Notes: generated by a model from the sequence alone, not told the origin. DNA of 58,896 nucleotides from Lentisphaerota bacterium (GCA_015061565.1 SUWI01000003.1:1-58896); one strand, 5' to 3'; counted from the first letter of the stretch, positions 6,262 to 23,228 are shown. A program made the numbers and translations.

Positions 6262-6447
6262 TTTTCTCCCCTGATGCTTGTTGGCAGATTTCTTTTTCTT
6301 TTTGTCCGGATAATGTTATTGTACTATATTGCAAAAACACGTTTTTTCAAGTATAGTTTATGATGGAATGCATCGGAACCGTCAGGAACGGTTTGCCGGG
6401 GCCGGAGTAAACGGACGTTGACGGAACAACATAAAAAGGAGAGACCC

Positions 6448-7152
6448 ATGAAACGGGACAAACGGAATTTCACCTTGATCGAACTCCTGGTGGTCATCGC
6501 CATCATCGCCATTCTGGCGGGGATGCTGCTGCCTGCCCTCAATCAGGCGCGGGAGACGGCAAAGAAGACCGCCTGCACCAACCAGCTCAAAACGCTGGCC
6601 AACTACACCCAAATGTACTGCGCCGGCTTTCAGGATTTCATCCCATGCATGGGGGGCAATGCGGAAAACTACAACTGGGCCACCTACGACACTGTGAACA
6701 ACAGGATCTCAGGGATCCCCTACATGCTGGGTTACGGCTGGAATACCTACGGCGCAGGTACTGTCAAATCCCAATCCTCCCTTTACCGGTGTCCCGCCCA
6801 GCAGTATGTCGGGCTCGGGCAAGCTTCCAACGTGCCCAAATGGAAAGAAGACTATTTCGGAAGACTCTGCTACGGCTGGAACCGGGAGTACAATTCCGGC
6901 TATCAAGGGAAATGCTTCCGCATCACCAACATCAAGAAAACTTCCCGGATCTTCTACCTCATCGAGACCCGTTATCTGGAAACCGGCAATACTCACTATC
7001 CATGGGAAGCCATCGAAAACGCCCGTGCGTGGTCGTACATCTACGGCCAGCGGCACAACAAGGTGGGCAATCTGGCCTTTTTCGACGGCCATGTGAGCTC
7101 CTGGAAAGGAACGGATCCGGCGAAAAGCCAGGCCGCGCTCTGGAAAGACTGA
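6448..7152 (+). CDS. Prepilin-type N-terminal cleavage/methylation protein with H-X9-DG motif (DUF1559-like)
   Basis: '[25 protein letters not shown]' and C-terminal '[15 protein letters not shown]'. AGGAG RBS before ATG 6448. Confidence 0.9.
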
Positions 7153-7238: not shown

Positions 7239-9572
7239 ATGAAATTCCATTTTATTCTCGCGTTTCTTCTGCTTTCCGGAATGGTGCTTTCCGCCGCGGA
7301 AGTGGTCATCAAGCTTGGGGAAACCGCCATCGTCTACAAGGGAAGCGCGGCCAATAAACTTGCCGCGGAGGACCTGCAGAAACATCTGGAACTCATCACC
7401 TCCGAAAAGGTGGTTCTGGCAAAAGAACACGCCGTTCCCGCGGGAAAGACCTTTCTCATGAAAGTCGGATTCCTCCCGGATGGCGTTTCTGCCGACAAGT
7501 TCGCTCCTCAGGAGTCCCACTACCGCATCACCCCGGAAGGAGCTTATTTCTATGGAGGCAGGGACGGCGGCGCCTCCTTTGCTGTCTATGATTTTCTGGA
7601 AGACAGCCTGAACGTAAGATGGCCTTCCGGAGAGGATATTGCAGCTCCCCGGCAGAACCCTGTGCGGATCACCGTCACGCAAGGGGACTGGTATCCCAAA
7701 TTCACCCTGCGCAATATGCGCACCGGCGGCAGCAGAATGGGAAGCAAAAACCGCGCTGCCCAGTTGGCATGGAAACGCCGTCTGCGCAACTGCCGGGGCT
7801 CCGACTGGAACTTCGGCCCCGGAGACGCCTACTACGCCAAGTGGTGGAAAAAGTATGGCAAGGATCATCCCGAATACTTCGCCATGAACATCCAGGGCGT
7901 GAGAGGCCCTTCCCCCTCCCGGGTGCGGGGCGTGGCGGATACGGGAAACATTGCCGCCTATCAGGGAAAAGACATTCTGGTAGCCTTCTGCTGTACCAGT
8001 GAACCCTATCTGGATGCGGTGATCGCCCAATATGAAAAGATCGGCAAGCCCGTCTGGCTGAATTTCTGTCAGCCAGACGTCATGGATTACGAGTGCTGCT
8101 ACTGCGAAAAATGCCGGGCTCTGGACGGCTATCCCGTGAAGAAAGGGGAAAAATTCCACGGCAACCGCCTTTCCGACCGCTATGTATACATGCTCAACCG
8201 CCTTTATGAGAAAGCCGTAAAGATCCGGCCCGACGTGAAGATCATGTCGGAGATCTACAACTTCTCCCAGGAGCCCCCGGTGAGAACCAAGATCGCCGGA
8301 CCCGACAACTGCTGCTTCACCCTCTGCCCCACCGATTTTACACTGGAGGGGATCGATGCTCTGCTTGCCGGCTGGAACAAGGCGGGGATGCGTTTCTTCA
8401 CCCACCGCCCCAACCGTCACGGCTACTTCATCACCATCCTGCCCTGCGGGTATGAGGAGCATTTCTTCAAGATCCTGCAGAAGATGGTGAAAGCGGGCGC
8501 CGCCGGTTTCGACTATGACTGCGCCAATACGTTCCTGCAGAACGGTCAGTGGTTCTCCGACTACGTCCTTCTCAAAGCCATGCAGGAGCCGGAAAAGGAT
8601 TTCGCCTACTGGGAAAAACACTACATGCAGGCTTTCGCCCCGGCGCAGGAGGAGATCTCCGCCTACTACGGCTACTGGAGGAACGAGGTCTGGAACAAGC
8701 GTCTCGCGCAGAATGTGGGCAAGCTCCAGAAGGAGGGACGCTATTTCAATTTCGGCCGCGGACTGGTGTACAATCTCAAGACCTACTACGAGGAAAGCGA
8801 TTTTTCCAAAGCGGGAGAATTCCTCAAGAAGGCCCTGGAAAGAAAGGACCTTCCCGAGGACGTGAGAAAACGCATCGAAGCGCTCTCCGTTGACAACGAA
8901 CACCATCGTCTCACCTTCCTTGCCATCACCAAAAAGAGCGACGAAGCCTCCATAGCGCTGCGCAAATTCCGCATGAAACACAATTACGCGCTCTTCCCCT
9001 GGGCTGAACAGTACTGGGGAGACGTGTGCGGCCTCAAGAAGGTGGACGATCTCAAGGATTTCGATCCTCCCTTCAAGCGCACCCCCTCCTTCTGGTACTT
9101 CAAACTCGATCCCAAGGACGCAGGCGTCAAGGAGGAATGGTACAAACAGCGCTTCCGCAAGATCGCGAACTGGGGCAATCTTATGGCCACCAACAACTTC
9201 TGGGAGACTCCCCACAAGCACTATAAGGTCATCTCCCCGGAGATCCGGGCACAGACCGCCAATTACGACGGGATCGCCTGGTACGGCACGGCGCTGGACA
9301 ATTTCCCGCTGGACTGGAAGGGAAGAAGAGTCTTCCTCTATTTCGGCGCGGTGGATGAATCCTGCTGGATCTATGTGAACGGCAAAAAAGCGGGCGAGCA
9401 CCTTTTCGTGAAGCCCGACGACTGGAGATCGCCCTTCTCCATAGAGATCACCGACTGCATCGACTGGGATTCCCCCAGACAGGTGGTGGTCGTCCGCGTG
9501 GCAGACAAATCCGGTGGCGGCGGGATCTGGAAAGACGTGATGCTGGTTTCCAAACTCCCGGAGAAGAAGTAA
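7239..9572 (+). CDS. Secreted DUF4838-like protein with a C-terminal GH2-type sugar-binding domain
   Basis: Signal peptide, 'HPEYFAM' and 'LSDRYV'. C-terminal 'YDGIAWY...LYFGAVDE..WIYVNG...GGIWK' matches a GH2 N-terminal beta-sandwich. Confidence 0.7.
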   Translation: MKFHFILAFLLLSGMVLSAAEVVIKLGETAIVYKGSAANKLAAEDLQKHLELITSEKVVLAKEHAVPAGKTFLMKVGFLPDGVSADKFAPQESHYRITPEGAYFYGGRDGGASFAVYDFLEDSLNVRWPSGEDIAAPRQNPVRITVTQGDWYPKFTLRNMRTGGSRMGSKNRAAQLAWKRRLRNCRGSDWNFGPGDAYYAKWWKKYGKDHPEYFAMNIQGVRGPSPSRVRGVADTGNIAAYQGKDILVAFCCTSEPYLDAVIAQYEKIGKPVWLNFCQPDVMDYECCYCEKCRALDGYPVKKGEKFHGNRLSDRYVYMLNRLYEKAVKIRPDVKIMSEIYNFSQEPPVRTKIAGPDNCCFTLCPTDFTLEGIDALLAGWNKAGMRFFTHRPNRHGYFITILPCGYEEHFFKILQKMVKAGAAGFDYDCANTFLQNGQWFSDYVLLKAMQEPEKDFAYWEKHYMQAFAPAQEEISAYYGYWRNEVWNKRLAQNVGKLQKEGRYFNFGRGLVYNLKTYYEESDFSKAGEFLKKALERKDLPEDVRKRIEALSVDNEHHRLTFLAITKKSDEASIALRKFRMKHNYALFPWAEQYWGDVCGLKKVDDLKDFDPPFKRTPSFWYFKLDPKDAGVKEEWYKQRFRKIANWGNLMATNNFWETPHKHYKVISPEIRAQTANYDGIAWYGTALDNFPLDWKGRRVFLYFGAVDESCWIYVNGKKAGEHLFVKPDDWRSPFSIEITDCIDWDSPRQVVVVRVADKSGGGGIWKDVMLVSKLPEKK

Positions 9573-9769: not shown

Positions 9770-10753
9770 CTATCTGATGTCTTTGTATTGCCCATGATGC
9801 TGCTGGGAGACATTCTTCAGCAGCTCGGAATGCTGGCCCATGGAAATCGAATGGATCGTCAGTTTCGGAACTTCTTGTTTCAGAAAAGCCGTCAAAGATG
9901 CAGAGTTACAATCCTGAGGCTCACCGTCCGAAAGGAAATAGACGGACTGGATCCCTTCCGCTTTGATAATAGGAATGATAGCTTGCCAGGCACGCATCAT
10001 TTCGGTTCCGCCGCCCGGAGAAAGGGCCTTGACGAAATCAATTGCCTTAGCGACATCCTCCATGGATGAAAACCGGTATCCACGTGCGTTTTGATCGGGG
10101 ACCAAGCTGCAGCCGCTGGAAAAACAGACGATCCGGAAACGATCCGAGGTTTTTCTGGTTTGAGCATGTCGGTCCGCAAGAGTTTTTTCAACTTCTTTTT
10201 TAACCAATTCGAGGCGTGACATGCCGCTGTCGGAAGTGGAAGAAGCCATGGACCCGGAGACATCCAGCAGGAAAATGACCGATCCGGAGGCTTCGACGCC
10301 GAAAAAACCTGTCGAGGTCCCGGAACCGGAAGCATTGCCGGAATCCTTGCCGGCGAGGTTAATCGTTGCGATATTGTCGTTCGATTTATCTTTGCTGGCG
10401 ACGGGAAGTTTTCCGCTGCCGGAAGCATTGACATCCTTCGGTTCATTTTTACCCTGTCTGCTGTTGCTTCTGGCAATTGAAGAACCGGTTTTTTTGGCAG
10501 CTGCAGCTGCCTTGGCGTTGTTTCCGGAGCTGCCCGCGCCCTTGTCCGAACCCAGATCCCCCTGTCCTTTTCCGGAGCCGGAACCATGATCGCCGGAACC
10601 GGTGCCGCTGCCGTACTGTCCTGTACCGTTCCCGGCGCTGCCGGAACCGCCGCCTCCCTCAGGAATGAGCATAAAGCCCAACGCAATGATGACAGTCCAG
10701 AACAGGATAAAAATCAAATAACGGCAGCAGCATTTCTGGTTTTCAGTATTCAT
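9770..10753 (-). CDS. Membrane-anchored VWA domain protein with a Gly/Ser-rich linker
   Basis: N-terminal TM helix, GSG-rich linker and an intact MIDAS (DVSGS, GGT, LSDG). Confidence 0.85.
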   Translation of the reverse strand: MNTENQKCCCRYLIFILFWTVIIALGFMLIPEGGGGSGSAGNGTGQYGSGTGSGDHGSGSGKGQGDLGSDKGAGSSGNNAKAAAAAKKTGSSIARSNSRQGKNEPKDVNASGSGKLPVASKDKSNDNIATINLAGKDSGNASGSGTSTGFFGVEASGSVIFLLDVSGSMASSTSDSGMSRLELVKKEVEKTLADRHAQTRKTSDRFRIVCFSSGCSLVPDQNARGYRFSSMEDVAKAIDFVKALSPGGGTEMMRAWQAIIPIIKAEGIQSVYFLSDGEPQDCNSASLTAFLKQEVPKLTIHSISMGQHSELLKNVSQQHHGQYKDIR

Positions 10754-11678
10754 AGAATTTATCAGCCCGGTTGGCAAATTGGTATGCAAAAAAGTCTCTG
10801 TCATCCGGCTCCATCAGGAAACCGTGAAAGACATTCTGTTTTTTCAGGATTTCGCGCAGCCGGTAAAAATCCGGGGCATCACTCTTGCTGATGACGAATT
10901 CCGGGATCCGGCCGGCCGGCAATCCCTTCATGAAATTCCGGAATTCAGGAGCAAGTTCTTTGCCGGTAAAGATGCTGATGCCTTTTTCCGGGATCGGAGA
11001 ACAGAGAAAAGACCGGTCTTTGACCTGATAAGTCACGGCCGGATTAGGCGTGTAAGATTTCCCGTTGATTTCCGGTCCGACCGGCCAGATTTTTCCGTTG
11101 TTGACAAAAATAAAGTAGGGAATATCTTCTTTTTTGACCATTGTGACGAAAACCAGATTTTTCAGCTGGGCCGAACCGATTTTTTTGTTCAGGTCAGCCA
11201 GAATCGTTTTTTTCTTTTTGACCATGGCAAGAAGACCTTTAAGCTGCTTTTCCGTTTTTTGCTGATCTGCGACGGCTTTCATCGTCTGGACCTCCAGATT
11301 TTTCAGAATGCTGCGGCTTAAGTTCACTTTTTGAAGCGCCATTTTCTGCGAAAGCAGTTTTTCCCGATACATCCGTTCCATCAGGGCGATTTCATGGACG
11401 AGCCGGAGTCGGGGATCGGCTTTCATATTTTCCAATAACTTAGCCTGTTCATCGGTCTTTTTCATCAGTTCGTCGAGTTCATTTTGAAGCTTGGCGGCCT
11501 GCTGCCGGACGACTTCGATATTTTCGTTCTGATCGGGAACGGCATTCTTTTTTTCCAGACCCCGGATCGAGATCATGACGGTGAGCAGGATAGCGATGAA
11601 CATCACCCCGCCGAAAGTATTGCACATGGCGTCCAGCAGCAAATCGAGGCTGGATTCTTCAGAACGGCGCCGGCTCAT
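10743..11678 (-). CDS. ExbD/TolR/MotB-like single-pass protein with coiled coil (copy 2)
   Basis: Basic N-terminus, then a TM segment containing Asp ('SLDLLLDAMCNTFGGVMFIAIL'), a coiled coil and a small alpha/beta C-domain. Confidence 0.65.
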   Translation of the reverse strand: MSRRRSEESSLDLLLDAMCNTFGGVMFIAILLTVMISIRGLEKKNAVPDQNENIEVVRQQAAKLQNELDELMKKTDEQAKLLENMKADPRLRLVHEIALMERMYREKLLSQKMALQKVNLSRSILKNLEVQTMKAVADQQKTEKQLKGLLAMVKKKKTILADLNKKIGSAQLKNLVFVTMVKKEDIPYFIFVNNGKIWPVGPEINGKSYTPNPAVTYQVKDRSFLCSPIPEKGISIFTGKELAPEFRNFMKGLPAGRIPEFVISKSDAPDFYRLREILKKQNVFHGFLMEPDDRDFFAYQFANRADKFYEY

Positions 11679-12517
11679 TTCCGGACCTCCGCAGCAATGA
11701 GGGTCTGTTCATCCGGCAGGATCTCCCGTCCACGCTCGAATCCGGCTTTTTTCAGTGCTTCCGACAATGATTCACCGTAGGAAAAGGCGGAAGGTTTCAG
11801 GAGCAGGACAAAATAAACCCTTTCGGACGGAAAGGAACGGCAAAAAGCGAGGCAATCGGCATAGTTGTCGTTGACCATGGCAAAAGTTTTCCGGGGAAAG
11901 GATTTGTCGATGCTGTTTACGCTGATTTCAGTTCCGCTGCATTCGAGCAGGACAGGCTGTTTGGGATTATTTTTGTTCCAGACAAAACGGATCACGTTCC
12001 TGATCTTGTTAAACTGCTCTTCGCGATGTCTGATCTCATCATTCAACGCCGCGAGCTGTTTCTGCAGTTCGGAACTTCTGGATTGGTTTCTCGCTATGAG
12101 GATCTCGGATTTCTTTTTCCGATCGATCTGTTCTTTCTGAGCTTGCAGGACCAGGGCATTCTCTTCTTCCAGTTTCGGGATCGAATTATCGATCTGCTGC
12201 AATTGCCGGATCCATTTTTCTTTCAGTTCCGGAAGGGTTTCGATCCGGAGTTTCTTCAGCTCTTCGATGCGCCGGTTCTGTTCCGCCGCCTGCCGGCGGA
12301 GCTGCATCAGAACCTCCCGGATCTGTTTCATCTCTTTTTTGAGCGCCGTGAGTTCCGCCTGAATTTCCCGGTTTTTCTGCTGAACTTTCATGGGACCCTG
12401 CTGCAGGACCATCAGCACCAGCATGATGACGACCAGGAACATGATCCCGGTAATGCTGGTGATGATATCCTGAAAACTGAAAAAAGAAACTGCAGCAGAG
12501 TTGTCTTTGGAAGCCAT
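11675..12517 (-). CDS. ExbD/TolR/MotB-like single-pass protein with coiled coil (copy 1)
   Basis: TM segment 'FFSFQDIITSITGIMFLVVIML' with Asp at the stator-B position, followed by a long coiled coil. Lies directly after the ExbB-like gene. Confidence 0.7.
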   Translation of the reverse strand: MASKDNSAAVSFFSFQDIITSITGIMFLVVIMLVLMVLQQGPMKVQQKNREIQAELTALKKEMKQIREVLMQLRRQAAEQNRRIEELKKLRIETLPELKEKWIRQLQQIDNSIPKLEEENALVLQAQKEQIDRKKKSEILIARNQSRSSELQKQLAALNDEIRHREEQFNKIRNVIRFVWNKNNPKQPVLLECSGTEISVNSIDKSFPRKTFAMVNDNYADCLAFCRSFPSERVYFVLLLKPSAFSYGESLSEALKKAGFERGREILPDEQTLIAAEVRK

Positions 12518-12523
12518 AAAAAC

Positions 12524-13390
12524 TCAATCCCCGTCATCCTGAGCCAAATCAACACTTTTGATCCTGCTGATCAGATAGCGATGGCAATAATCGGAACACT
12601 CATCGAGGAAAAGTTCCTCCCGGTTGAGGACCCAGGTCATCAGCAGCTGGATGATCAAAGCCATGACCAGGGCGATCAAAGTGGTTTCAAAAGCGATGGA
12701 AAGGCCGCCGGTCACGTCGCCCAAGGCGGCGATCAGTTCCTGGGGATTGCCGGCGCCCTTGTCGATCACGGTACCGAAATTGCCGATCGCCTTGGCCAGC
12801 CCCAGCACGGTTCCGATAAAACCCAGCACGGGAATTGCCCAGATAAAACCTTTCAGGACCGTATAACTGCCGCTCAGATATTCGTCATCGTTCCTGGCCT
12901 GCGTATTGAGACATTCGGCGACGGCACTGACATTGCCGAGATTCTTCAAATTGACCAGGGCACGCTGGATCCGGTCAAGGAGGACAAAATCTTTCGGATT
13001 GCTGACCAGCAGGTTGATTTTTTCCAGGATGAGTCGGGCACTGGCACAGGTCAGCACAAAATTGCGGTCGTCCGGCAGCAAACTGAGTTCCAGCGCCTTA
13101 CGCTGGACATGAAGTTTCTGGATTTTGATCAGCAATATCGACAGTGCCCAGCTCCCCAGGAAAACGGTGAAATAGGGAATGGAAGACCGGTCTTTTTCGC
13201 CCCCGTGAAAAAACATATCCACGGCCCAGTGCTGTCCGCGGAAAAAGCTCAGGCTCAAATAAAACAGGGAAAAAATCACCACTCCTCCCAGAAAAGAAAA
13301 AAGGGAGTTGACATCCGTGAATTTTTTGCTTTTGAACCCGCAGATGCATTCGATATCGCTCAATTTTCGGGAAATCTGTTTCTGCTGCAT
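12524..13390 (-). CDS. MotA/TolQ/ExbB proton channel family protein
   Basis: 'AIPVLGFIGTVLGL' and 'GLSIAFETTLIAL' signature helices plus two N-terminal TMs. Alternative start at 13411. Confidence 0.92.
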   Translation of the reverse strand: MQQKQISRKLSDIECICGFKSKKFTDVNSLFSFLGGVVIFSLFYLSLSFFRGQHWAVDMFFHGGEKDRSSIPYFTVFLGSWALSILLIKIQKLHVQRKALELSLLPDDRNFVLTCASARLILEKINLLVSNPKDFVLLDRIQRALVNLKNLGNVSAVAECLNTQARNDDEYLSGSYTVLKGFIWAIPVLGFIGTVLGLAKAIGNFGTVIDKGAGNPQELIAALGDVTGGLSIAFETTLIALVMALIIQLLMTWVLNREELFLDECSDYCHRYLISRIKSVDLAQDDGD

Positions 13391-13407
13391 AAAACATCCT
13401 TTCATTT

Positions 13408-14355
13408 TCATATCAAAGTTTTAAATGAGTAAATAACCGAAATCAGGACTGGATTGAGAAAAAAGACGAGGGTGAACACGGGACCTTTCCAGGATCGTCC
13501 TCCGGCTTCCAGATAGTCGCGCAGCTGCATGGCGCAGCTGCACAGGGCCAGCGTATCGATGAAAACCAGAACGGCCTGCACCCAGACATGCTGAATGCCG
13601 TGAGCCAAAGCCAGAAAACAGCAGGCCAGAGTGCCGTAATTCATAAAAAGGCCGGCTGCGCAAATCTTCCATGACGATGAAATTTTATGTCCTGCGTCAG
13701 CACAACGTTTGGCGGCCAGCAGTCCGGTCAACCCGGCAACCGCCCCCAGTATGGACAGAAGACTCAGCCCCATCAGCGGAGATAAAAAGCAGTCGAACCG
13801 CTGACTGTAATACTTGCCGAACAGCAGAATGATGCCTGCGCCCAGAAGAAAATGGATCAAGGCGGCGATACTGTAATACCGGCCGGATTTGCCGGCATGG
13901 TCATGCAGTATTTCCTGAAAATCCCAGGGAAGCGCAATGGTCCTGCCGATATCCGCGATCAACTCACGCAAAGGGGATGATGCGGCCGGCGTCGGCTCAT
14001 CCTCAGACGGTTGAAACTGCAGCGTTCCCGACAGAGAAATTACCGGAGAAGCGACCGTGCCGGCCGGGTCGGGAGAAATAATGCTGCGGCTGGCAGGATC
14101 CCCGTTTTTTCCGGATCGGTCAGGAGCCGGAACGTGCGGCGGCTCCTCCGGGTTCAGGGCGATGGGCTTTCCCGGCGATAAAGCCGGGAAAAGGATGCTG
14201 ATATAGTTCCATTGGCGTTTGTCTCCGGAAACCATATCATCGCAAGTCAAGGTCCCGCGGTTGAACATGGCGGTCAACCTGAGCATGGAATAAGGTCCGG
14301 TGATTCGGCCCGCATGCCGGAGATAATATCTTTTTCCCGCAGTACTTGACATCAT
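13408..14355 (-). CDS. GYF_2 (DUF4339)-like domain protein with a Pro-rich linker and ~5 C-terminal TM helices
   Basis: 'YYLRHAGRITGPYSMLRLTAMFNRGTL..DDMVS....W', followed by a hydrophobic C-terminal half. Confidence 0.75.
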   Translation of the reverse strand: MMSSTAGKRYYLRHAGRITGPYSMLRLTAMFNRGTLTCDDMVSGDKRQWNYISILFPALSPGKPIALNPEEPPHVPAPDRSGKNGDPASRSIISPDPAGTVASPVISLSGTLQFQPSEDEPTPAASSPLRELIADIGRTIALPWDFQEILHDHAGKSGRYYSIAALIHFLLGAGIILLFGKYYSQRFDCFLSPLMGLSLLSILGAVAGLTGLLAAKRCADAGHKISSSWKICAAGLFMNYGTLACCFLALAHGIQHVWVQAVLVFIDTLALCSCAMQLRDYLEAGGRSWKGPVFTLVFFLNPVLISVIYSFKTLI

Positions 14356-14367
14356 ATCCCAGACTCC

Positions 14368-17300
14368 TTACAGCACCAGATCCGCAGGAAGGACAGCCGG
14401 TCTGACCTTCAGTTCGATATTCAGGCGCTGTGCCTCTTCCCGCCATTTCCGCAAAAATTCTCCCGTGCTCTGATTGTCTCCGTAACACCAGATCACCTGT
14501 CCGGCGAAAAGCCGTTTTTTCCACTTGTCATCTCTCGGGACTTCTCCCTTCCAGACTTTTTTCGGCAGGACGAAGACGGCATTATTCTCCAGAACAAGTC
14601 CCTCAACGGGGAGCTTGCAATCTTTGAAAAGATGGATCTTGACTTTGTTCTGTTCTGATTTCTGGACCACGCCGACCGGAATCAGAAGACGTGCATGCGC
14701 CTTGCAGATAAATCTGTCCCGGATTTCTCCGGCCTCCAGGAGCCGATTCAAATTTTCAAGAGTCCATTTCCGGTCGAATTGTCGTTTTTCCTCGCCGTAT
14801 TCGGCAGCGGCCTGCGGCGCCCGCCAGTTGCGTTGGGGAGTTTGCTTCAGTTCTTCCAAAGCAGCCGACAATTCCGGGTACAGGAGCGGTGAAGTATCAT
14901 ACAGTTCCTGCAGAAATTGCAGGAGCAGTGTTTTTTTCAGGTAGATATTTTCCACATTGCCTTTCTGGCAAATGAATCTCAAGGCCCCCTTCAGATTGGA
15001 AATCAGACCAGGACCATCGCCGTTCAAAGCATTATATTTCGAAGACAGGACCTGTCCCGGCCAGAAAGGCAGGCCGTCCTTGGGCAGGGGTGGTTTCTGC
15101 TGTCCATTCAGCGAAATAAAACCTTTGGGCAGTTCATACGGCAGATTCGGATGCCGGGTCGTGATCAGATAGGGCATCTCCGGATTTTTTTCATTGAATG
15201 AAATGATGAAACGGCTGTTTGTCTCATTGTCCACAGGAATGGGGACGAAGATTATATTGATCCGGCGGGGATGGCGCAAATATTCAACCTGTCCGTCCTT
15301 TTCATGGAAATAAAAATAAAACGGTCTGCGGTCCTTGTCGGCAAAGATGATTTCCTTTAGATCCTTATCCGTTTGAAGATCCTGGAAAAACTGGTCGAAA
15401 TTCTTGCTGCGTTCCATTTTGGGGCGGAATACACCCACATCGGTTTTGAAAAGGCCATCCGAGAAACCATTATTATCAGGAAATCCTTCCAGTCTTTCCG
15501 GGAAGTTTTTTTCGTAATTGTCCCGCTCATCCTTCCAGTTTTTGCAGAGGCGGAGCGGCAGGGAATAACGGATGGCCAAGTCGGGATGTTTATAACGGAT
15601 CTTTTCCAGATCCCGGATGAAATCATCAAAAGAAACCGGCGAATTGACCAGTCGGAAGGCATTCTCATTTTCCCAAGTCAATTCGAAACGTGTTTTGGAG
15701 GCCTGGTATTTTTTCTTTTCCTCGTCTTTCATAGACGGTATGATATAGCTGTAACGGCTGCTTTTCAGTTTCTCATCGAAATCATTTTGGCTTACCGCCA
15801 GGAGTGTTCTGAGGTCATTGAGTTTTTTCTGCGGGTCGCGGATCTGTTTGATCAGTTCTTCGACCTCGCCGCATTTTTTCCTGCAGAAAGCCAGAAACTC
15901 AGTTTCCCTCTGTTTTTTCAGTTCAGTGCGTTTCTGGATGATCTTAGTCTCCAAGCGGGTGAACTGATCCAGAGATTCTTTGCTCAGCAGTTCTTTGTCT
16001 TTCAATTTTTCTGCTTGCGACATGGCCAGATCCAACTGCCGGGCGTTATCGAGGATATCAGTTCCCGCCAGCCGCTCGATTTGCTGCAGCAGGCGCTTGA
16101 ATTCTTCCTCTTTCATTTTCTGATGATTGAGCATCTCCTCCTTCTGCTGTCTGGCAGCGGTATGGATCCGGATGATCTGGGGATCGGCTGCAACCTTCGA
16201 CGAGGCGGCCTTCAGTCCCCCATAAATCTTGATGACCTCGTCATACTTCCTGTTATCCAGAAGATCCTGCATATTGGCCAGGTTGCGTTTCACTGCAAGA
16301 TAGTGCTGCATATACCATATGGAAAAACCGATGGCGAGAGTCAGCAATACCGCGCCGCAAATGCCGTAGATACACCAGCGGACATGCCGCAAATGCTCCA
16401 GACGGTTATATTCCTCTTCAAGAGCTTTCAGCCGGTCGTCAAGGGCGGTCGGGATCAGATTGTCCATCAACTGCAGCTGGTTGTAATCACCAGCCACCTC
16501 GGAAAACGGCGCATTGTCTGCCAGTTTCTGTTCGATTTTCAGGATCAGTTCCTGACAAATCCGGTCATTCTTCCTCGTTTCGGCTTCCTGTTCAAGAAAC
16601 GATTCGATATCGGCGGCAGTCTGCCTTTGTTCATCGGACAGATTGATCACCGGGCTGGAGCAGAACATTTTCCATTTTTCAAATTCTTTTTCCAAACGGT
16701 CAATATCGCGTGCCTGGTAGCATTCCTGAAGCTGCGCCAGTTTGCTTTCGATCTCTTTGTTCAGTTTGGCCTGCTGCAGGGGCCGCAGTTTCTGCCGGAT
16801 AGCCGATTTAAGTTCCTCCTTGGGCGGGATCAGCCAATCCGGAGCCATGACTTCGCGGCACAGTTCCTCCAATCTGCTGCAGCAGTCCGAATATCCATCG
16901 ATTTCTTCGAGGTCATGTTCGATTTCCTGACAGCGGGAACGCTCCGCAGTGATCAGGTCATTGCGCCAGCGGGGGGAATTGGGCAGTTTCTGCAATATCT
17001 GGCGCAGCAGAGTGATACGCTGCAGCATGCTCCCGTTTCTGGCGATTTTCCGGTAATCCTGAAATAATGCGTGAAGACGTTTCTCTCCCGTGGAGATCGG
17101 GGCAATCAGCTGCTGGAGCAGCTGTTCATCGGGAAAAACCGGTGTTTCCAGGCCATATTCCTTGCAGATGGCAAAAAAGTCATTGGCCTTGAAATAAGCA
17201 AGCAGCTCTGCTTTCCGGGTCAGCGGCGGATCGAAAGAAAGGTTCAATTCCCGCGCAGCCTGGATGGAACCGTTTTCTATCAGCGTGCGGCACTGCTCCA

Positions 17301-17433
17301 AATTGGTATTCAATTCTTTGAAAGCCAGCAGACACGCCTTGTGCAGCTGGCGCAGATGCACACTGTCGGATAAATCGCCGCCTGCAATCAGCAGTTTTAT
17401 GCTTTCAACCGTATTTTCAACAGTATTACCCAT
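14368..17433 (-). CDS. Large (1021 aa) helical/coiled-coil single-pass membrane protein
   Basis: Long ORF with a central TM 'WCIYGICGAVLLTLAIGFSIWY'. Overlaps the upstream gene by 8 bp. Confidence 0.8.
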   Translation of the reverse strand: MGNTVENTVESIKLLIAGGDLSDSVHLRQLHKACLLAFKELNTNLEQCRTLIENGSIQAARELNLSFDPPLTRKAELLAYFKANDFFAICKEYGLETPVFPDEQLLQQLIAPISTGEKRLHALFQDYRKIARNGSMLQRITLLRQILQKLPNSPRWRNDLITAERSRCQEIEHDLEEIDGYSDCCSRLEELCREVMAPDWLIPPKEELKSAIRQKLRPLQQAKLNKEIESKLAQLQECYQARDIDRLEKEFEKWKMFCSSPVINLSDEQRQTAADIESFLEQEAETRKNDRICQELILKIEQKLADNAPFSEVAGDYNQLQLMDNLIPTALDDRLKALEEEYNRLEHLRHVRWCIYGICGAVLLTLAIGFSIWYMQHYLAVKRNLANMQDLLDNRKYDEVIKIYGGLKAASSKVAADPQIIRIHTAARQQKEEMLNHQKMKEEEFKRLLQQIERLAGTDILDNARQLDLAMSQAEKLKDKELLSKESLDQFTRLETKIIQKRTELKKQRETEFLAFCRKKCGEVEELIKQIRDPQKKLNDLRTLLAVSQNDFDEKLKSSRYSYIIPSMKDEEKKKYQASKTRFELTWENENAFRLVNSPVSFDDFIRDLEKIRYKHPDLAIRYSLPLRLCKNWKDERDNYEKNFPERLEGFPDNNGFSDGLFKTDVGVFRPKMERSKNFDQFFQDLQTDKDLKEIIFADKDRRPFYFYFHEKDGQVEYLRHPRRINIIFVPIPVDNETNSRFIISFNEKNPEMPYLITTRHPNLPYELPKGFISLNGQQKPPLPKDGLPFWPGQVLSSKYNALNGDGPGLISNLKGALRFICQKGNVENIYLKKTLLLQFLQELYDTSPLLYPELSAALEELKQTPQRNWRAPQAAAEYGEEKRQFDRKWTLENLNRLLEAGEIRDRFICKAHARLLIPVGVVQKSEQNKVKIHLFKDCKLPVEGLVLENNAVFVLPKKVWKGEVPRDDKWKKRLFAGQVIWCYGDNQSTGEFLRKWREEAQRLNIELKVRPAVLPADLVL

Positions 17434-20011
17434 TGACGTTTCTCCGGATTATTTTAACTTTTCTATTTTTCAGATCTTCCAGCCGTTCCTGTTCTGGAAT
17501 TTGCCTGTATATGCCAATGACATCCTCCAAACGCCGAGGTTCTTTGTTTTCCAAAATATGCTTGACTTTACGGAATAAAACTGGTGAACTTTTTTGCAGA
17601 ATCTCAATCAAATCACGGTTTTTCTTTTGAAACTCTTTACGGCTGATTTCATAATTTTTCCGGAGCTCAGCCAGTTGTTTCCGACAGCTGCTGCAAGCCT
17701 GGTATTTCTCTCTGAAATCATTATAGTCCCGAAGTATTTTCAGAGACATTTTATCCAGCTTTTCCTTCTTGGTCTCCGTCTGCAATATTTGCCTGATCCC
17801 ATCGATATGCAGCTTCCAGGCTTTTTCATCATCCAGCGGAGCGAGCCGTTTGGTTTCCTCCCATTTCGACTTGAGCTTTTCCTTTATTTGCGGCGGTGCT
17901 TCAATTACCAGTTCGGGTTCTTTCAGCTGCTGCCGGTTCTCGGTCTTGAATCTCTCTTCCTCTTTTTCCAGATTCACTAATTTATCCAGGGATTTATTCC
18001 GTTCTTCGGTCTTTCTGCTCAAAGGTGACTGGGATAATGTATGTAAAAGAATATCTCTTTGATCTATTTTGCCCAAACTGCGGTTATTGTTCGAAATCGT
18101 ATAAAATTCCCTGAATGTCCACAGATTATCTGAAACATGCAGATAAAACCAGAAATTATCCATCTCATCTTTTATTTCGATTTTGATTTCCTTGTTCAGT
18201 ATCCTTTCAATACATTCGGGGAGATTACCGGTATCGAAAGTAAAGCTCTCCCCCTTCTTTGATATGAATTCGATCTGGGAGATATCTTCTTTATGAGGGA
18301 CATTATTGCCCTTTTTCGAGGGCGGCTGGATGGTCAGGACACCGTCGGACAGTTGGATGATCATCTGGCCGGCTGGATCTTTATCCGGCAGCCGGTTCTG
18401 CTTGATTCCCGAAGTATCGACTCGGGATGAATAAACTGTAACGGATTTACCCGGGCTGGAAATGAAATCTTCCGGATTTTTAATATCTAACCCGCCAATG
18501 GAATGAAGGCTCAGTTCCATTTTTGCCGAATCCCGCAAAGCCATCGGCAATTTGATTCGTTTGCCGGAATAAAAACCGAGGTACAATTCAAAATAATCGC
18601 GGTCCGAGAGCCGGCCGAATTTTACTTTTGGAACTGCGGTATCCTTTTTTTGCGGCAATGCAGCTGCCGGTTTGGGATCCCTCAATTTGCGAGGCTGTTC
18701 ATGGAGAGGCTTTTCACGGGATTTCTTCGGTTTTTGCCGGGTTTCCGGCTGGGCTGTTCCCGATATGGGCGGAACACCGGCGGAGACCTTGCCGTCGGGG
18801 TGTTTTTTCCCTGCCTCAGCATTTTTCTCCGCCCTGATGCCTGCAGCCGGATTTGTTATTTCAACAATGTCCTCAGAACATCCATTATGATCATGCGGGT
18901 TTTCCGGTGGCAGATTTCCCGTAAAGATCCGCCAGGCCACCGCGGAAATCAAACCCAGGATCGCAGCACAGATAACCGTCAGTATCAGGATTTTTTTGAT
19001 TTTCTGACTGGACTGTTTTGCGTCAGGCGGGTTACTTTCCTCCTTAGCCTGCATCTCAGTTCGATCGATTGGATCCAGCCGTACCTGATCATGATCCGAA
19101 TCGGCGGCTTTTCCGTTCGGCTGCGGGTCCGTGATATCTTCGATCCGGGGGTCGGAAGGATCGGATGCCTCATCGGCGGCCTGGTTCTCCCGTTCCGGCA
19201 GGATTTCTTTCTCTTCCTGCCGAGACACTTTTGCCTGCCAGGAGGGGGGCAGGGGATTGCCGGTTCCCAGATAAATGACAGATTCCGGATCAAGCCGTTT
19301 GATGCTGCCCAGCTGGACCGAGTCTTTTACATAAGCACGTAAAAACAGCGGATTCGTCATCCGTGAAGAATAACAATACGTGGAAAAGGTGAAATGACGC
19401 AAATCCTCCTTGCTCATCCAAACTGCCATTTCCGCCGCCAGATCCAGCATATCGGCGCCGTTATGCTGAAGCGGGTCGAAGGAAAATGCAAACCCCTTTT
19501 CCGGATTGGAATGGAAACGATCTGCCAAATACTGGCCCCACCGGGGATCGCCGGCCAGTTTTTGCCACATGCTGCCTCCTTGCGGCAAAGGCCGGTGACA
19601 GACCTTTTCCTTCAGGGGAAGCAGCCGGGGTTCACCGCTCCACGGCGGAAAATTCTCCTCCGCCCGTAAAACCGAGACTGCTCCGCCCGGGATATCATCC
19701 AGTTCATCCGGCAAAAAGAGCAGATGATGGGCGATCACATTGCTCCTTCCGGTATAACTCAGTCCGGCATACGATATCCTGCTCAAAACCAGGTATGACG
19801 TCCGGCCCAGACGGAGCAGCTGACATGTAAAATTTACCGGATTGCTGTTTTCATGCTCCGTCCCCGGCGCAAAAAAGGGTTTATATCCGCTCAGATTTTC
19901 AACCGGAGCGATCAGATTCGGCGGAAATCCTTTCGTAAGAGCCACCGTGGTAAAACCGGACCGTCCGGTTATCAATCCGGTCGGGGTAGACGTATATACC
20001 AGCTCAAACAT
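17426..20011 (-). CDS. GAP1-N2-like (GTPase-associated protein 1) domain protein with a TM and large C-terminal region
   Basis: N-terminus 'ELVYTSTPTGLITGRSGFTTVA...VLSRISYAGLSYTGRSNVIAHH' and middle 'FTFSTY', as recalled for GAP1-N2/GAP1-M proteins. Directly follows a GTPase. AGGAG RBS. Confidence 0.75.
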   Translation of the reverse strand: MFELVYTSTPTGLITGRSGFTTVALTKGFPPNLIAPVENLSGYKPFFAPGTEHENSNPVNFTCQLLRLGRTSYLVLSRISYAGLSYTGRSNVIAHHLLFLPDELDDIPGGAVSVLRAEENFPPWSGEPRLLPLKEKVCHRPLPQGGSMWQKLAGDPRWGQYLADRFHSNPEKGFAFSFDPLQHNGADMLDLAAEMAVWMSKEDLRHFTFSTYCYSSRMTNPLFLRAYVKDSVQLGSIKRLDPESVIYLGTGNPLPPSWQAKVSRQEEKEILPERENQAADEASDPSDPRIEDITDPQPNGKAADSDHDQVRLDPIDRTEMQAKEESNPPDAKQSSQKIKKILILTVICAAILGLISAVAWRIFTGNLPPENPHDHNGCSEDIVEITNPAAGIRAEKNAEAGKKHPDGKVSAGVPPISGTAQPETRQKPKKSREKPLHEQPRKLRDPKPAAALPQKKDTAVPKVKFGRLSDRDYFELYLGFYSGKRIKLPMALRDSAKMELSLHSIGGLDIKNPEDFISSPGKSVTVYSSRVDTSGIKQNRLPDKDPAGQMIIQLSDGVLTIQPPSKKGNNVPHKEDISQIEFISKKGESFTFDTGNLPECIERILNKEIKIEIKDEMDNFWFYLHVSDNLWTFREFYTISNNNRSLGKIDQRDILLHTLSQSPLSRKTEERNKSLDKLVNLEKEEERFKTENRQQLKEPELVIEAPPQIKEKLKSKWEETKRLAPLDDEKAWKLHIDGIRQILQTETKKEKLDKMSLKILRDYNDFREKYQACSSCRKQLAELRKNYEISRKEFQKKNRDLIEILQKSSPVLFRKVKHILENKEPRRLEDVIGIYRQIPEQERLEDLKNRKVKIIRRNVNG

Positions 20012-20027
20012 GCGATGGCATCTCCTG

Positions 20028-21803
20028 TCACTTTACAGTTTTGCGGACATCGGGGAATCGGTATTTGCTGCCGTTCAATTCAATTTCAGCGCCGGCATAG
20101 CATATCGGCAGACGAATGATCTTGCCGTTAGCCGGATGCGTGAAAACGATCTTGTCTTTGATGATCTGACCCAGAATTGCAGTATTTGACGCAGGGCATT
20201 TTGCAACCGGGATCTGCTCATTCTGCGCGAGCAGAAGCAGGATCGGCACATCGACCCAGATCGGACTGATCTTTGCCGGCGTGACTCCTATGGTTCCATC
20301 GGTTTTCTGTTCGGCAAAAGTCCCGAAATTCGAAACGGGAATGAAAAAGACATTGTCAAAAAAACTTTCCGCTGCATTGACCAGACCGGGAACATAATTC
20401 AGCATCATTTCCCGGAGCGTATAGGACACTTGGTAAATATTGTCCATCGCCAGCAGATATTCCTCTTCGTCTTGCCACCCCTTGCGCTTGGTTATATAGG
20501 GGGTTTCCGTCATGTTCAGGGGAAATTTGTTCCTCCAGGTATCATATTTGCCTATTGCGATGACCAGAGGGATCTTGCAGGAATCGGAGCTGTGCATATT
20601 GGCATGCCGCCGGATCCGGTTGATCATTTCATTCAGCAGAATGGTCTGATCCACTGCCCGGGGATTCTTCGAAACCTGCGGATCGCGTTCATCGCAGAGG
20701 TCAAGCCGCATGGATGCATCATTGACCGGATCGAAGAGAAACACGATCCCGTTCGAGTGGGAAAGATGGAAAGTCGCCTGATTGACCCATTCGTCACGCC
20801 CGGGAATGAACATTTCTCCCGAGTTGTCATAAAAAATCATATTGAGATCGTTTTCATCGCCGTTCTGGCGAAAATCGAAGACAAAGGGTTTGGGCAATTC
20901 AATGTCTATATCGTCCAGGCGGATCCGGTCGGAAATGCCTTCCCCGGAGATCTGGGTCGCCGGCAATGAGGTGATCTCGTCCGGTTTCAATGACATGAAA
21001 AGCTGTTTTTCATAGGAATTCAGAGTCGCATTGAGTTCAGGATCCGCATCGAAAAAAGCTGCATCGAAATATTCCGGCAGGGTTTTCCGAAGCTGATGGG
21101 TCAGGCAGGTCAGAAAATAAGACTTTCCGCTCGAAGTCGCTCCCGCTATGGAAAAATAAAGGGAAGGCTTGTCCAGCAGTCCCGAAGGAATACGCAGATG
21201 ACAGCGGGGACAAGCCATTTCAGTCGCGGGCAGACCTCTTTCATCCAGCGGCTGGCCCATCTGATTGAATACCGTCGGCATAAACCTTTTTGGCGCATAT
21301 TCGCCCAGTATGGGATCCCCGTACAGGGAAGGATGGACTGATATGTAAAGAATGTAATCCTGATCAAAACTTTTCCAGCAATGAGGACACAGCAGATCCC
21401 CATCGGGGATGTCGCTGTCAAGGTCCACATAGGGAATGTTGGAAATAAATTCAGTTGTGGAATCCGCCCGGGGCGGAAGTTTGAATTTGATCCCGCACTT
21501 CGAACATTTGAATACGGTTGCCTTGAACAGATCTTCCGTAACGCTGTAGTGCTGGCCGCAATCCGGACAGGCTATCCGTATGCTCCCCCCGTTGCCGGAA
21601 CTGAGAAATTCTGCCGTTTTGATTTTCTGGTCAGGCTGATCGGCAAGGATTTTCCCGATCTTGAGGCATTGCCCGTCCTGCGGTCCGCCGGATATTTTGG
21701 CAAAAGAATCTTCCGAAATCGTCTTGCCCGAAACCATTTTCCGCAGTTGTTCCAGCGAAAAAGGTCCGACCTGCAAGCCGTCTTTGAATATGTAATAGTC
21801 CAT
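20028..21803 (-). CDS. TRAFAC-class GTPase (DO-GTPase-like) with N-terminal GYF_2 and zinc-ribbon domains
   Basis: G1 GATSSGKS, G2 PAT, G3 DNSGE, G4 GKYD, G5 VSNFG. N-terminal 'YYIFKDGLQVGPFSLEQL'. CxxC pairs CPDC/CSKC and CPHC/CPRC. Confidence 0.85.
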   Translation of the reverse strand: MDYYIFKDGLQVGPFSLEQLRKMVSGKTISEDSFAKISGGPQDGQCLKIGKILADQPDQKIKTAEFLSSGNGGSIRIACPDCGQHYSVTEDLFKATVFKCSKCGIKFKLPPRADSTTEFISNIPYVDLDSDIPDGDLLCPHCWKSFDQDYILYISVHPSLYGDPILGEYAPKRFMPTVFNQMGQPLDERGLPATEMACPRCHLRIPSGLLDKPSLYFSIAGATSSGKSYFLTCLTHQLRKTLPEYFDAAFFDADPELNATLNSYEKQLFMSLKPDEITSLPATQISGEGISDRIRLDDIDIELPKPFVFDFRQNGDENDLNMIFYDNSGEMFIPGRDEWVNQATFHLSHSNGIVFLFDPVNDASMRLDLCDERDPQVSKNPRAVDQTILLNEMINRIRRHANMHSSDSCKIPLVIAIGKYDTWRNKFPLNMTETPYITKRKGWQDEEEYLLAMDNIYQVSYTLREMMLNYVPGLVNAAESFFDNVFFIPVSNFGTFAEQKTDGTIGVTPAKISPIWVDVPILLLLAQNEQIPVAKCPASNTAILGQIIKDKIVFTHPANGKIIRLPICYAGAEIELNGSKYRFPDVRKTVK

Positions 21804-21818: not shown

Positions 21819-22931
21819 TCAGTTATGGTTGTATTTCTGATATTCCGAAAGGGCGGTATCAAACCGTTTTTCCCAGTCAGGATTTCTGATCATCTGGAGC
21901 ACTTCCAGCATCGCATTGCCCCATTCCGGAAATTCACTGCGCGGTGATAAGGTCTGCGTCTTCCTCCAGGCGGTGTAACAGCTCGGCACAAAGGTGCGGT
22001 TCATATCTTTCAGATCTGACGGCGGCGCATATTCCCACTGGCCGTGCCGGTCCGGGAAAACCGTTTTGAAACTTTTTTCCCGATTCTGGTTGTCATTCCT
22101 GTTCTGGACATATTTTTCCCGGATTTCTTCCCCGATCTGTTTTATTTCTTCATTCAGTTCGTTCTTAAGTTCATTGCTGATGCCGGAATGGCGGATCGCC
22201 GCCACCGATATGTCCCAATATTTTGAATACAGACAAAATGCCAGAAAATAATTTTTCTGATTATCTGCCAGATTTTGGATGACCCGGATCGCATTTGCAT
22301 TTTTCAGGGAACCTTTCAACCCTTTTTCCAGCAGCATGTCCAGGGTGCCGGAATTGTTGTCCTCGGACGAGTTTTGAGGCGAATAAGGGCAGCTGCTCCG
22401 TCTGGACGCCGCTTGCTTGTTTGAACGGGCGTTCGACTTCGCCTTGGCCGCACGATACTGGGCAATATTTAGTCTTATGGCATTGTTAAACTTCTCCAAA
22501 TCCTTATAAAAGGAAAGTACCAGATTGGTGACTGGCGTATTCATTTTTTCTGCCAGTTTCCTGTACCCGTCCGATAATTTTCTTGCCTTGAAGCCGCTTT
22601 TGATATTCCAATATGCCAGTTCCATGGCCACTATCTCCGGAGTCAGTTCCGATTCGAGATAATTTAGTTTTGTGCAGGCTCCCAATTTCGGTTTGACATA
22701 ACAAATTGATCCGTTCCCACGGTAAGGCGTGCACTCCAGCAGAATTGCACCATCGTTTTCGCGAATTGCCTTTTGAAAAACCACAATGTCTCTTTTTATC
22801 GTTTTTCCATCCGAATATTCAGCATAAAGCAATTGCCCCGCATCATCAACGGTCAGAAATTCATCCGCAGCTGATAACCAGAAAAAAGAAAAAAAGAGCT
22901 GCATTATACAGAAAATAACTTTATGCCTCAT
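21819..22931 (-). CDS. Hypothetical secreted protein, first gene of the GTPase operon
   Basis: GAGGAG RBS and signal-peptide-like 'MRHKVIFCIMQLFFSFFWLSAA'. Ends 15 bp before the GTPase start. Confidence 0.75.
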   Translation of the reverse strand: MRHKVIFCIMQLFFSFFWLSAADEFLTVDDAGQLLYAEYSDGKTIKRDIVVFQKAIRENDGAILLECTPYRGNGSICYVKPKLGACTKLNYLESELTPEIVAMELAYWNIKSGFKARKLSDGYRKLAEKMNTPVTNLVLSFYKDLEKFNNAIRLNIAQYRAAKAKSNARSNKQAASRRSSCPYSPQNSSEDNNSGTLDMLLEKGLKGSLKNANAIRVIQNLADNQKNYFLAFCLYSKYWDISVAAIRHSGISNELKNELNEEIKQIGEEIREKYVQNRNDNQNREKSFKTVFPDRHGQWEYAPPSDLKDMNRTFVPSCYTAWRKTQTLSPRSEFPEWGNAMLEVLQMIRNPDWEKRFDTALSEYQKYNHN

Positions 22932-23228
22932 ACACTCCTCTCTGCAAAAATACGAATATTGCAACCGTTCCTGTTAACTTTTATATATAAAAATAACACA
23001 CCTTCTGTTAATTGCAAGCAAAGGTCTCTCGTAAAAATCGAAAAATGCCAGTGGAATGTCAAAATCCCGAAGGCGCATCTGGATGAGCTGAAACAGCAGA
23101 TCCAATTATTTATTCCGCCCGTGATCCAGCATGGATACGGATATATTGATACAAATGAATAATTAACCTTTTCAAAACTGAAGCGGATAATTGATGCTGG
23201 AGCTGTAGGCTCCAGCATCTGAAAACTC

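Follow-up and report, generated by a model that had tools for sequence, protein, structure and literature searches.

A MotA/TolQ/ExbB-family subunit with two unlike rod-bearing partners, a probable heterodimeric motor, in a DO-GTPase/GAP1-N2 operon of a Lentisphaerota bacterium

A 58,896-nucleotide stretch of DNA from a Lentisphaerota bacterium (GCA_015061565.1, SUWI01000003.1:1-58896; the whole stretch is referred to here as the window) carries three minus-strand open reading frames (ORFs) at 10743..13390 that encode a PF01618 (MotA_ExbB) protein, here designated A, and two different downstream partners, B1 and B2, as an original prediction from the sequence had proposed. We consider it probable (roughly 60%) that A, B1 and B2 form one proton-driven motor of the MotAB/ExbBD/TolQR type, in which a B1:B2 heterodimer would serve as the axle in a ring of A subunits. 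Pairing of the B1 and B2 rods with each other, rather than each with itself, is well supported by computation, because rod lengths, a model of the complex, heptad phase and charge co-evolution agree. The three genes form the distal, conserved part of an operon of nine genes of the DO-GTPase/GAP1-N2 type, a context that was absent from the original prediction, whose reading as a whole is partly supported. Whether motors of this class run on two unlike axles is a question for which the later support, in the parts of the sources available to us, comes from structure prediction only (PMC12204202, PMC11761067), and salt-bridge positions that covary at one register provide evolutionary evidence for an obligate heterodimeric axle.

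A MotA/TolQ/ExbB-family subunit and two partners with a transmembrane Asp

A is a predicted member of the MotA/TolQ/ExbB proton channel family, with a match to PF01618 (E 4e-11, 43.2 bits, cut-off 22.9) that also lies above the cut-off in the A orthologues of 10 distant loci. An upstream ATG at 13411 would give a protein of 295 residues, and the start at Met-8 (13390) gives the 288-residue form, which is the database form P0190. Its pore motifs are IPVLGFIGTV (12806-12832) and AFETT (12680-12694). In an alignment of 18 sequences from four phyla, plus a CobN-linked paralogue, P187, L189, G190, G193, T194, A233, F234, T236 and T237 are invariant (18/18 aligned); we take T194, T236 and T237, which fall on the last two transmembrane helices, to be the equivalents of the conserved pore Thr residues of ExbB and TolQ. 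The identity of A is 53-84% among the matches listed, and that of B1 and B2 is about 30% at similar depth. A weak PADLOC match to ZorA2 (E 3.1e-4) covers residues 173-265 of A, the MotA core.

Both partners carry an Asp at the start of their single transmembrane helix, in the motif FFSFQDII of B1 (Asp17, 12467-12469) and LDLLLDAM of B2 (Asp16, 11631-11633). Asp17 and 13 neighbouring transmembrane residues are invariant in 32 of 32 B1 homologues, which are 25-62% identical to the window protein and were chosen among 120 matches listed, of 176; Asp16 and 10 neighbours are likewise invariant in all 32 B2 homologues, chosen from 69 matches and with identity down to 19%. The Asp motifs are not due to chance, because they are invariant across diverged homologues of both proteins. 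In B1 a heptad rod, hinged near Pro96, follows at residues 45-179 (11981-12385), and then an end domain at 184-270 (11708-11968); the corresponding segments of B2 are a rod hinged at Asp88-Pro89, which covers about residues 43-170 (11169-11552), and an end domain at 183-311 (10746-11132). The rods, with some 130 heptad residues each, are the least conserved part of B1 and B2. AlphaFold2 models with a predicted local distance difference test score (pLDDT) of 85.4 for B1 and 81.4 for B2 show a transmembrane helix, two long helices (42-89 and 92-179 in B1, 53-86 and 89-169 in B2) and an alpha/beta end domain. Comparison of the B1 and B2 alignments with hhalign gave a probability of 99.3 (E 1.9e-20 over 276 columns, a score inflated by the coiled-coil part), and this full-length match therefore marks them as paralogues with one architecture.

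Neither B1 nor B2 has a Pfam match at E <= 0.01, nor a match to OmpA or ExbD at E <= 0.1, and no OmpA family of NCBIfam matched either protein; the lack of an OmpA domain is normal on the ExbD/TolR side of the family. The original prediction was therefore right about the transmembrane Asp residues, which are conserved among homologues, about coiled coils of more than 100 residues and about the lack of an OmpA domain. A PADLOC match of B1 to ZorB1 has an E value of 0.037. Foldseek returned no match at E <= 0.001 for either model, and only weak RNase-H-like rows; the VIA-align list for B2 was filled by coiled coils. Profile searches of the PDB with the two alignments yielded coiled-coil proteins only (lamin, Smc, myosin), and these were discarded. 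At their membrane ends B1 and B2 would work like TolR and ExbD, while lying outside the ExbD Pfam family PF02472. The N-terminal flank of the transmembrane helix is more positive than the C-terminal flank in 56 of 80 B1 and 53 of 72 B2 sequences, and the predicted topology, N-in with the rod outside, rests on these flank charges together with family analogy.

The B1 and B2 rods appear to pair with each other

In the window, 167 residues separate the Asp from the end domain in B1 and likewise 167 in B2. Over 72 loci the two spacers are correlated (Pearson 0.86, Spearman 0.74) and differ by no more than 7 in 65 loci, while the spacers themselves span 101-181. In the window sequences the heptad a-positions of B1 fall at 49+7k and then at 99+7k, those of B2 lie two residues lower, and both proteins make the same one-residue heptad skip at the Pro hinge.

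Charge complementarity was scored as g-to-e' pairs over 17 heptads in 75 loci, with residue i of B1 placed beside residue i-2 of B2. The cognate heterodimer scores +3.51, against -0.05 for a B1 and -0.13 for a B2 homodimer, and the heterodimer exceeds the mean homodimer score in 58 of the 75 loci, with 4 ties. When partners were shuffled the score fell to 0.34 +/- 0.30, and the cognate value was reached in 0 of 2000 shuffles. An offset of -2 alone stands out among the 31 scanned (3.51), the remaining 30 giving values between -0.96 and 0.72. The signal is significant in each half of the rod separately, and in the 28 loci with rods of equal length the cognate score is 6.18 versus 1.48 +/- 0.50 for shuffled partners (0/2000). 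Related loci are not independent observations; the within-group shuffle and the offset scan do not rely on independence in the same manner. Charge pairing starts at residue 48 of B1, about 10 residues past the end of the transmembrane helix, and therefore the B1 and B2 helices would leave the membrane side by side, which agrees with both helices sharing one ring and speaks against a peripheral position of the TolA kind for either partner. Inspection of the window proteins by eye indicates that the a and d core positions of B1 between residues 120 and 148 (about 12074-12160) are mostly polar (N, Q, Q, K, S, N, S) and that the facing core positions of B2 (118-146) are mostly hydrophobic; a polar mid-rod core would disfavour a B1 homodimer.

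A structural model of the B1+B2 complex reached an interaction prediction score from aligned errors (ipSAE) of 0.63 (runs 0.63, 0.65 and 0.63), with the best control at 0.00; of 157 solved complexes 116 attain the 0.63 mark, as do 2 of 215 mismatched pairs. The runs share at least 86% of their contacts, with a partner pLDDT of at least 78. The contacts of lowest error, B1:127-B2:125 and B1:162-B2:160, place the rods parallel and in register (-2), which is the same register as that found by charge co-evolution, and the end domains touch in the model.

A nine-gene operon with the trio as its distal module

The window contains nine co-directional minus-strand genes at 9770-22964, which either overlap or are separated by short gaps (Table 1); the stop codon of B1 overlaps the start codon of B2 in the sequence ATGA, and 6 nucleotides separate A from B1. 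The guanine-plus-cytosine (GC) content of the operon is 0.495, and that of its flanks 0.548 and 0.57.

Table 1. Genes of the operon in the window, from its first gene to its last
Gene product	Position	Strand	Features
381-residue protein, first gene of the operon	21819..22964	-	N-terminal signal or anchor helix; hydrophobic segment 16-34
DO-GTPase-like protein, 591 residues	20028..21803	-	N-terminal GYF domain and zinc ribbons; GYF_2 3.1e-6
GAP1 protein, 861 residues	17426..20011	-	PF20013 GAP1-N2, E 1.3e-21; transmembrane helix 341-359; 500-residue C-terminal part
1021-residue single-pass protein	14368..17433	-	One transmembrane helix, 354-372; conserved in the operon
GYF-domain protein, 315 residues	13408..14355	-	Transmembrane-rich C-terminal half; GYF_2 weak in the window, E 0.0015
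A subunit, MotA/TolQ/ExbB family (predicted), 288 residues	12524..13390	-	PF01618; four predicted transmembrane helices
B1, 280 residues	11675..12517	-	Transmembrane helix with Asp17, heptad rod, alpha/beta end domain
B2, 311 residues	10743..11678	-	Transmembrane helix with Asp16, heptad rod, larger alpha/beta end domain
Membrane-tethered VWA protein	9770..10804	-	Likely start Met-18 at 10753; VWA_2, VWA_3 and VWA matches

Some of the proteins encoded upstream of A are better recognised in their orthologues than in the window. The 591-residue protein scores 17.9 bits against DO-GTPase2, weakly and below the cut-off of 27, and its orthologues in four loci score above it (L024 33.9, L049 29.2, L042 29.0 and L016 28.8 bits). 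Orthologues of the GAP1 protein match GAP1-M as well, and GYF_2 is clear in orthologues of the 315-residue protein (for example 4.7e-25 in L049). Library searches gave no family match for the 381-residue protein, which has tblastn matches upstream of the GTPase gene in many Lentisphaeria loci. The 1021-residue protein has no Pfam, NCBIfam or PADLOC match and no usable match in the ESM Atlas, and was found by tblastn in 38 of the 53 loci that have at least 9 kb of upstream sequence. PADLOC matched no defence system to the operon, and its LmuB and JetC rows were rejected as coiled-coil noise.

The VWA protein is predicted to consist of a transmembrane helix (29-47), a Gly/Ser-rich linker of about 130 residues and a VWA domain (176-341) whose DxSxS motif lies within 10247-10279; Lys/Arg flank counts of 2 versus 0 place the domain outside. 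Orthologues start with MNIE or MNT, and the transmembrane segment is variable, with no conserved His, Asp or SHLS motif in the window protein and 28 orthologues. Of the 61 loci that have enough downstream sequence, only 28 show the gene by tblastn. Only gene neighbourhood suggests a link between the VWA protein and the rod. Of the heterodimeric coiled-coil shaft acting on an adjacent VWA protein that was originally envisaged, the shaft is supported by co-evolution, rod lengths and the complex model, and the action on the VWA protein is weakened by this partial occurrence and by a helix that is not conserved and has no His/SHLS feature.

A scan with the B1 alignment, taking one genome per species, yielded 154 relatives, of which 80 loci were kept (81 with the window), from Lentisphaeria/Victivallales, Planctomycetota, Verrucomicrobiota and a few Desulfobacterota. 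By motif pattern, a B2 gene comes next after B1, in the same orientation, in 76 of the 81 loci, with 626-938 nucleotides from Asp to Asp, and a variant B2 motif in the same frame as B1 at L065 raises this to 77; L080 is cut off and no B2 was scored there. Of the 73 loci with room, 59 have A immediately upstream, 7 have it upstream but separated by an inserted gene, 3 have it at another place in the locus, and in 4 it was not found. A GTPase or GAP1 gene is present in 43 of the 53 loci with at least 9 kb upstream. Pfam searches of 104 ORFs from 11 distant loci placed DO-GTPase2 above the cut-off in the four loci named above and recovered GAP1-N2/M, the approximately 1000-residue protein without a family, GYF proteins, MotA_ExbB and then B1 and B2; GAP1-N2 and GAP1-M occur together in 9 of the 11, GAP1-M stands alone at L014 (a locus edge), and L017 and L069 have neither. 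A VWA domain fused to GYF lies between A and B1 at L054, and the VWA gene precedes A at L011. All nine genes are present in the cultured Victivallis vadensis DSM 14823 (L079), and questions about the system are therefore directly testable.

The arrangement varies in further ways. The N-terminal module of the DO-GTPase protein is GYF in the window and FHA or FHA plus GYF elsewhere (L042:2180-4075, L024:3538-5571, L016:2199-4229). In a Lentisphaerae metagenome-assembled genome (MAG) a homologue of the 1021-residue protein lies downstream of B2 and not upstream of A (L024:11701-14736), so that the order is shuffled and the set kept. A Victivallales locus has a gene for a PrsW-family intramembrane protease directly upstream of A and after the GYF protein (L069:8003-9094). 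A Desulfamplus locus holds an orphan B1-B2 pair beside EAL/GGDEF and methyl-accepting chemotaxis protein genes, with no A within 10 kb (L017:9983-11418); Desulfamplus loci carry short-rod versions, and three of them (L055, L058, L076) have neither B2 nor a GTPase gene nearby. An Isosphaeraceae MAG has B1 and B2 joined in a single open frame, some 600 residues long and including a Pro-rich linker (L065:10036 onward). We rejected this fusion as evidence of interaction: in a fused protein the B2 helix would be oriented the wrong way, and a lost stop codon or a sequencing or assembly error is therefore likelier.

Within the phylum the system is patchy. There are 30 full-length matches in a sample of 401 genomes (45 matches at E <= 1e-5, of which 15 were read as partial coiled-coil matches), it occurs in 5 of 24 genomes of its own family, and in genera where it does occur there are genomes, 98-99% complete, that lack it. 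Apart from the operon, the genome that carries it encodes canonical ExbB-ExbD and TPR-ExbB-ExbD-TonB-like clusters, together with two that are CobN-linked. Patchiness and the separate canonical clusters make a housekeeping role less likely, and favour the view that the operon is an accessory system, probably one related to conflict. The CobN-linked MotA_ExbB genes of the same genome, G000:C172 (L117:6962-7887) and G000:C161 (L118), lie beside CobN/Mg-chelatase genes, one of them with a DUF2149 partner, and are a different, metal-chelatase-linked use of the family.

Proposed mechanism and alternative explanations

In the mechanism that we favour, B1 and B2 would enter the membrane N-in, with the Asp near the cytoplasmic end of the helix, and would zip into a parallel, in-register two-stranded rod with residue i of B1 beside residue i-2 of B2. 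The axle in the A ring would be this heterodimer and not a homodimer, and with a pentameric ring the stoichiometry would be 5:1:1. The rod would run for some 130 residues, or about 19 nm, with one shared heptad skip at the conserved Pro hinge, and would be capped in the periplasm by two different small alpha/beta domains. Proton flow would turn or strain the ring against the rod, and could couple events at the outer envelope, involving the rod tip, the VWA protein and the ectodomains of the GAP1 and 1000-residue proteins, to the cytoplasmic GTPase switch; proton flow, the direction of signalling and the biological role are properties that we infer for the trio. Operation would resemble that of a Tol/Ton/GldLM-type transducer within an accessory, probably conflict-related system. 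More tentatively, all nine genes might encode a single proton-powered, GTPase-gated trans-envelope machine in which motor and rod act on the VWA, GAP1 and 1000-residue ectodomains while GYF and FHA modules couple the ring to the double GTPase. Such a machine could be a Zorya-like immune device of inverted geometry for envelope surveillance, or a remote functional counterpart, beyond the myxobacteria, of the Agl-Glt focal-adhesion machine; we regard this broader scheme as speculative. The long, simple rod should lend itself to cross-linking, truncation and lengthening by heptads.

Several observations weigh against a motor with a B1:B2 axle. Three Desulfamplus loci (L055, L058, L076) have A and B1 with no B2 downstream, and therefore a B1 homodimer must be viable in some lineages. 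The covariation in length would be expected too if two homodimers spanned the same gap; moreover, phylogenetic contrasts on the A-subunit tree give a spacer correlation of 0.72 (61 contrasts) and a rank correlation of 0.27 (p 0.035), and the low rank correlation means that the length signal comes from a few large shortenings in different phyla. The controls for the ipSAE of the complex were unrelated proteins that are not coiled coils, and a protein closely related to a true partner may score well too. In the single-chain models the rod is broken at the hinge, near residue 90, and contacts of the complex at residues 90-132 of B2 are denser than in a plain two-stranded coil, so that in the model part of the rod may be a bundle. 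Kinship with ExbD also meets obstacles: a PF02472 search of the genome found C195 and C262 only, neither of them B1 or B2, and hhalign comparisons of the B1 and B2 alignments with 24 ExbD sequences of relatives were not significant (E 0.019, 0.15, 0.38). VIA-align superposes the B1 end domain on E. coli TolR (5by4_A; Z 8.1, root-mean-square deviation 4.0, 88/105 residues, 18% identity) in third place, but this match is tied with the central domains of Pelota (8.5, 8.3) and an actin/RNase-H-like fold (8.0). We infer the pentamer and the 5:1:1 stoichiometry by homology alone.

Two alternatives concern the composition of the motor. The A ring might take a B1 homodimer or a B2 homodimer, making two separate motors whose rods merely span the same distance. 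The B1-only loci of Desulfamplus and equal rod lengths, which would follow from a common gap, are compatible with this; so is the precedent of AglRQ and AglRS, for which separate motors were once considered. A 2022 review, in the part available, gave hetero versus homo pairing as unknown for AglQ and AglS (PMC9389320). It is nevertheless quite unlikely, since homodimers show none of the g-e' complementarity of the cognate pair, the charge signal is lost on shuffling and at all offsets but -2, and in the window the polar core of B1 faces hydrophobic positions of B2. The other arrangement, in which one B protein forms a homodimeric axle and its sibling is a TolA/TonB-like transducer outside the ring, appears very improbable. 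The order ring, short partner, long partner does recall tolQ-tolR-tolA, and tethered transducers beside tolQR-like genes have been reported in bacteria of the Planctomycetes-Verrucomicrobia-Chlamydiae (PVC) group (PMC12204202); against it, B1 and B2 both carry the invariant Asp and share one architecture, neither has a helix of the His/SHLS type, and charge pairing from residue 48 of B1 has the helices exit the membrane side by side.

As to function, the main rival to a transducing B1:B2 motor is a gated proton leak, an abortive-infection-type effector of the GTPase system, in which release of the rod or plug would collapse the membrane potential. We consider it unlikely, although it would suit the patchy occurrence within genera, phylum and family, the GC content of the operon compared with its flanks, and the conflict system with membrane effectors such as SLATT that is proposed in the available text of PMC7159879. 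A 19-nm co-evolving rod with two conserved end domains exceeds the needs of a plug, A is far more conserved than typical effectors (over the range given above for the matches listed), and no defence family was matched, with just the weak ZorA match on A. A housekeeping envelope machine, Tol-Pal-like or serving adhesion or gliding and not conflict, seems decidedly unlikely. Strong conservation of gene order across phyla would be in keeping with such a machine, as would the components shared with Agl-Glt in the accessible part of PMC11761067 (a ring, two TolR-like proteins, FHA/GYF, VWA and a GTPase); the scarcity of the operon in the phylum, its absence from nearly complete genomes of carrier genera and the separate ExbB-ExbD and TPR-ExbB-ExbD-TonB-like clusters of the genome tell the other way.

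Comparison with known systems

The trio resembles AglR, AglQ and AglS of Myxococcus, which combine one TolQ/MotA-like ring gene with two TolR/MotB-like single-pass partners that carry a membrane Asp. This precedent was invoked in the original prediction, and PMC11761067, in the portion seen, predicts an AglR5:Q:S complex with heterodimeric insertion. As described there, the Agl-Glt machine shares with our operon its FHA and GYF modules, carried by GltG and GltJ, a GTPase and a VWA protein (an adhesin in Agl-Glt); the same portion does not mention a long coiled-coil rod for AglQ/AglS, whereas B1 and B2 have about 130 heptad residues of equal length. The partners also differ, DO-GTPase/GAP1-N2 here and MglA/Glt there.

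TolQ-TolR-TolA and ExbB-ExbD-TonB share with the trio an A-family ring with conserved Thr motifs, an N-in helix with Asp and the lack of OmpA, and the B1 end domain superposes on TolR with the tie described above. Unlike TolR and ExbD, B1 and B2 fail the ExbD Pfam model and profile comparison and have a rod between helix and end domain; in place of a homodimer there are two paralogues, with no His helix of the TonB/TolA type. They differ from MotB-type partners in having no C-terminal OmpA-like peptidoglycan-binding domain recognised by Pfam or NCBIfam. GldL-GldM and PorL-PorM of Bacteroidota are similar in that the inner partner dimerises into a long periplasmic shaft, of 18 nm for GldM in the available part of PMC9389320 compared with the 19 nm or so estimated for the B1:B2 rod. 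The GldM shaft is, however, a homodimer of four globular domains without sequence relation to B1 and B2, and serves type IX secretion and gliding.

The trio is also comparable to Zorya ZorAB, a MotAB-type proton motor in an accessory conflict system, and A has the weak ZorA2 match given above. In Zorya the long tail belongs to ZorA and lies on the cytoplasmic side, and it is ZorB that binds peptidoglycan; in contrast, the long rod of the trio would belong to the B partners and lie outside, and PADLOC found no ZorC or ZorD in the operon.

A study in Molecular Biology and Evolution (2025; PMC12204202) reports membrane-tethered transducers beside tolQR-like genes in PVC bacteria and, from AlphaFold 3 models, heterologous Asp-bearing pairs, including vWA proteins, inside a TolQ-like pentamer. 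Its TPR-tolQ-tolR-tolR-vWA cluster is like the operon in that a ring gene is followed by two TolR-like genes that differ from each other and by a gene for a tethered vWA protein whose linker is disordered, and the window VWA protein has the three-part shape of the published vWA force transducers without their His/SHLS helix feature. The words coiled and GTPase are absent from that paper. Identity of the two clusters was considered and is unlikely: no TPR match was found by Pfam anywhere in the operon (window proteins and scanned distant loci), the VWA helix has no His/SHLS, and in relatives of this genome there is, apart from the operon, a TPR-TPR-ExbB-ExbD-ExbD cluster that encodes ordinary PF02472 proteins of 139-156 residues and is probably of the published type. 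Since that separate cluster exists in relatives and TPR is lacking in the operon, we take the published cluster to be a different one.

The available text of PMC7159879 describes DO-GTPase/GAP1-N2 systems, whose planctomycete and verrucomicrobial versions have GYF fused to a transmembrane-rich region and frequent vWA genes. The operon agrees with these systems in GAP1-N2, GAP1-M, a DO-GTPase-like protein with zinc ribbons and membrane association, and departs from them in that Pfam found no FN3 (FNIII-repeat) match in any of the nine window proteins. None of the terms MotA, ExbB, ExbD, TolQ, TolR, stator and proton channel appears in the text of PMC7159879 or its two supplements (figures aside), and in the part available no energy source or membrane output is described for these systems, to which the operon would tie a proton motor. 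Our full-text literature searches returned no paper that joins DO-GTPase/GAP1-N2 with MotA/ExbB motors, and the portion of PMC12505986 at hand makes no mention of coiled coils, Lentisphaerae or heterodimers. Heterologous TolR-like pairs (AglQS, PVC clusters) are already published, and the link of a motor trio to DO-GTPase systems is new.

Sequencing runs and genes flanking the operon

The DNA sequencing runs listed as containing the sequence are animal gut and faeces metagenomes, and no RNA sequencing run is listed. Downstream of the operon, on the opposite strand, lie genes for a prepilin-type N-methyl protein (6418-7152) and a DUF4838/GH2-N protein (7239-9572). Beyond its other end, the window at 24184-28654 includes two low-GC stretches (0.44 and 0.43) and a DDE transposase ORF (25875-27512, minus strand; DDE_Tnp_1 just above the cut-off), which is flanked by alpha-acetolactate decarboxylase paralogues at 24184-24996 (minus strand) and 27938-28654 (plus strand).

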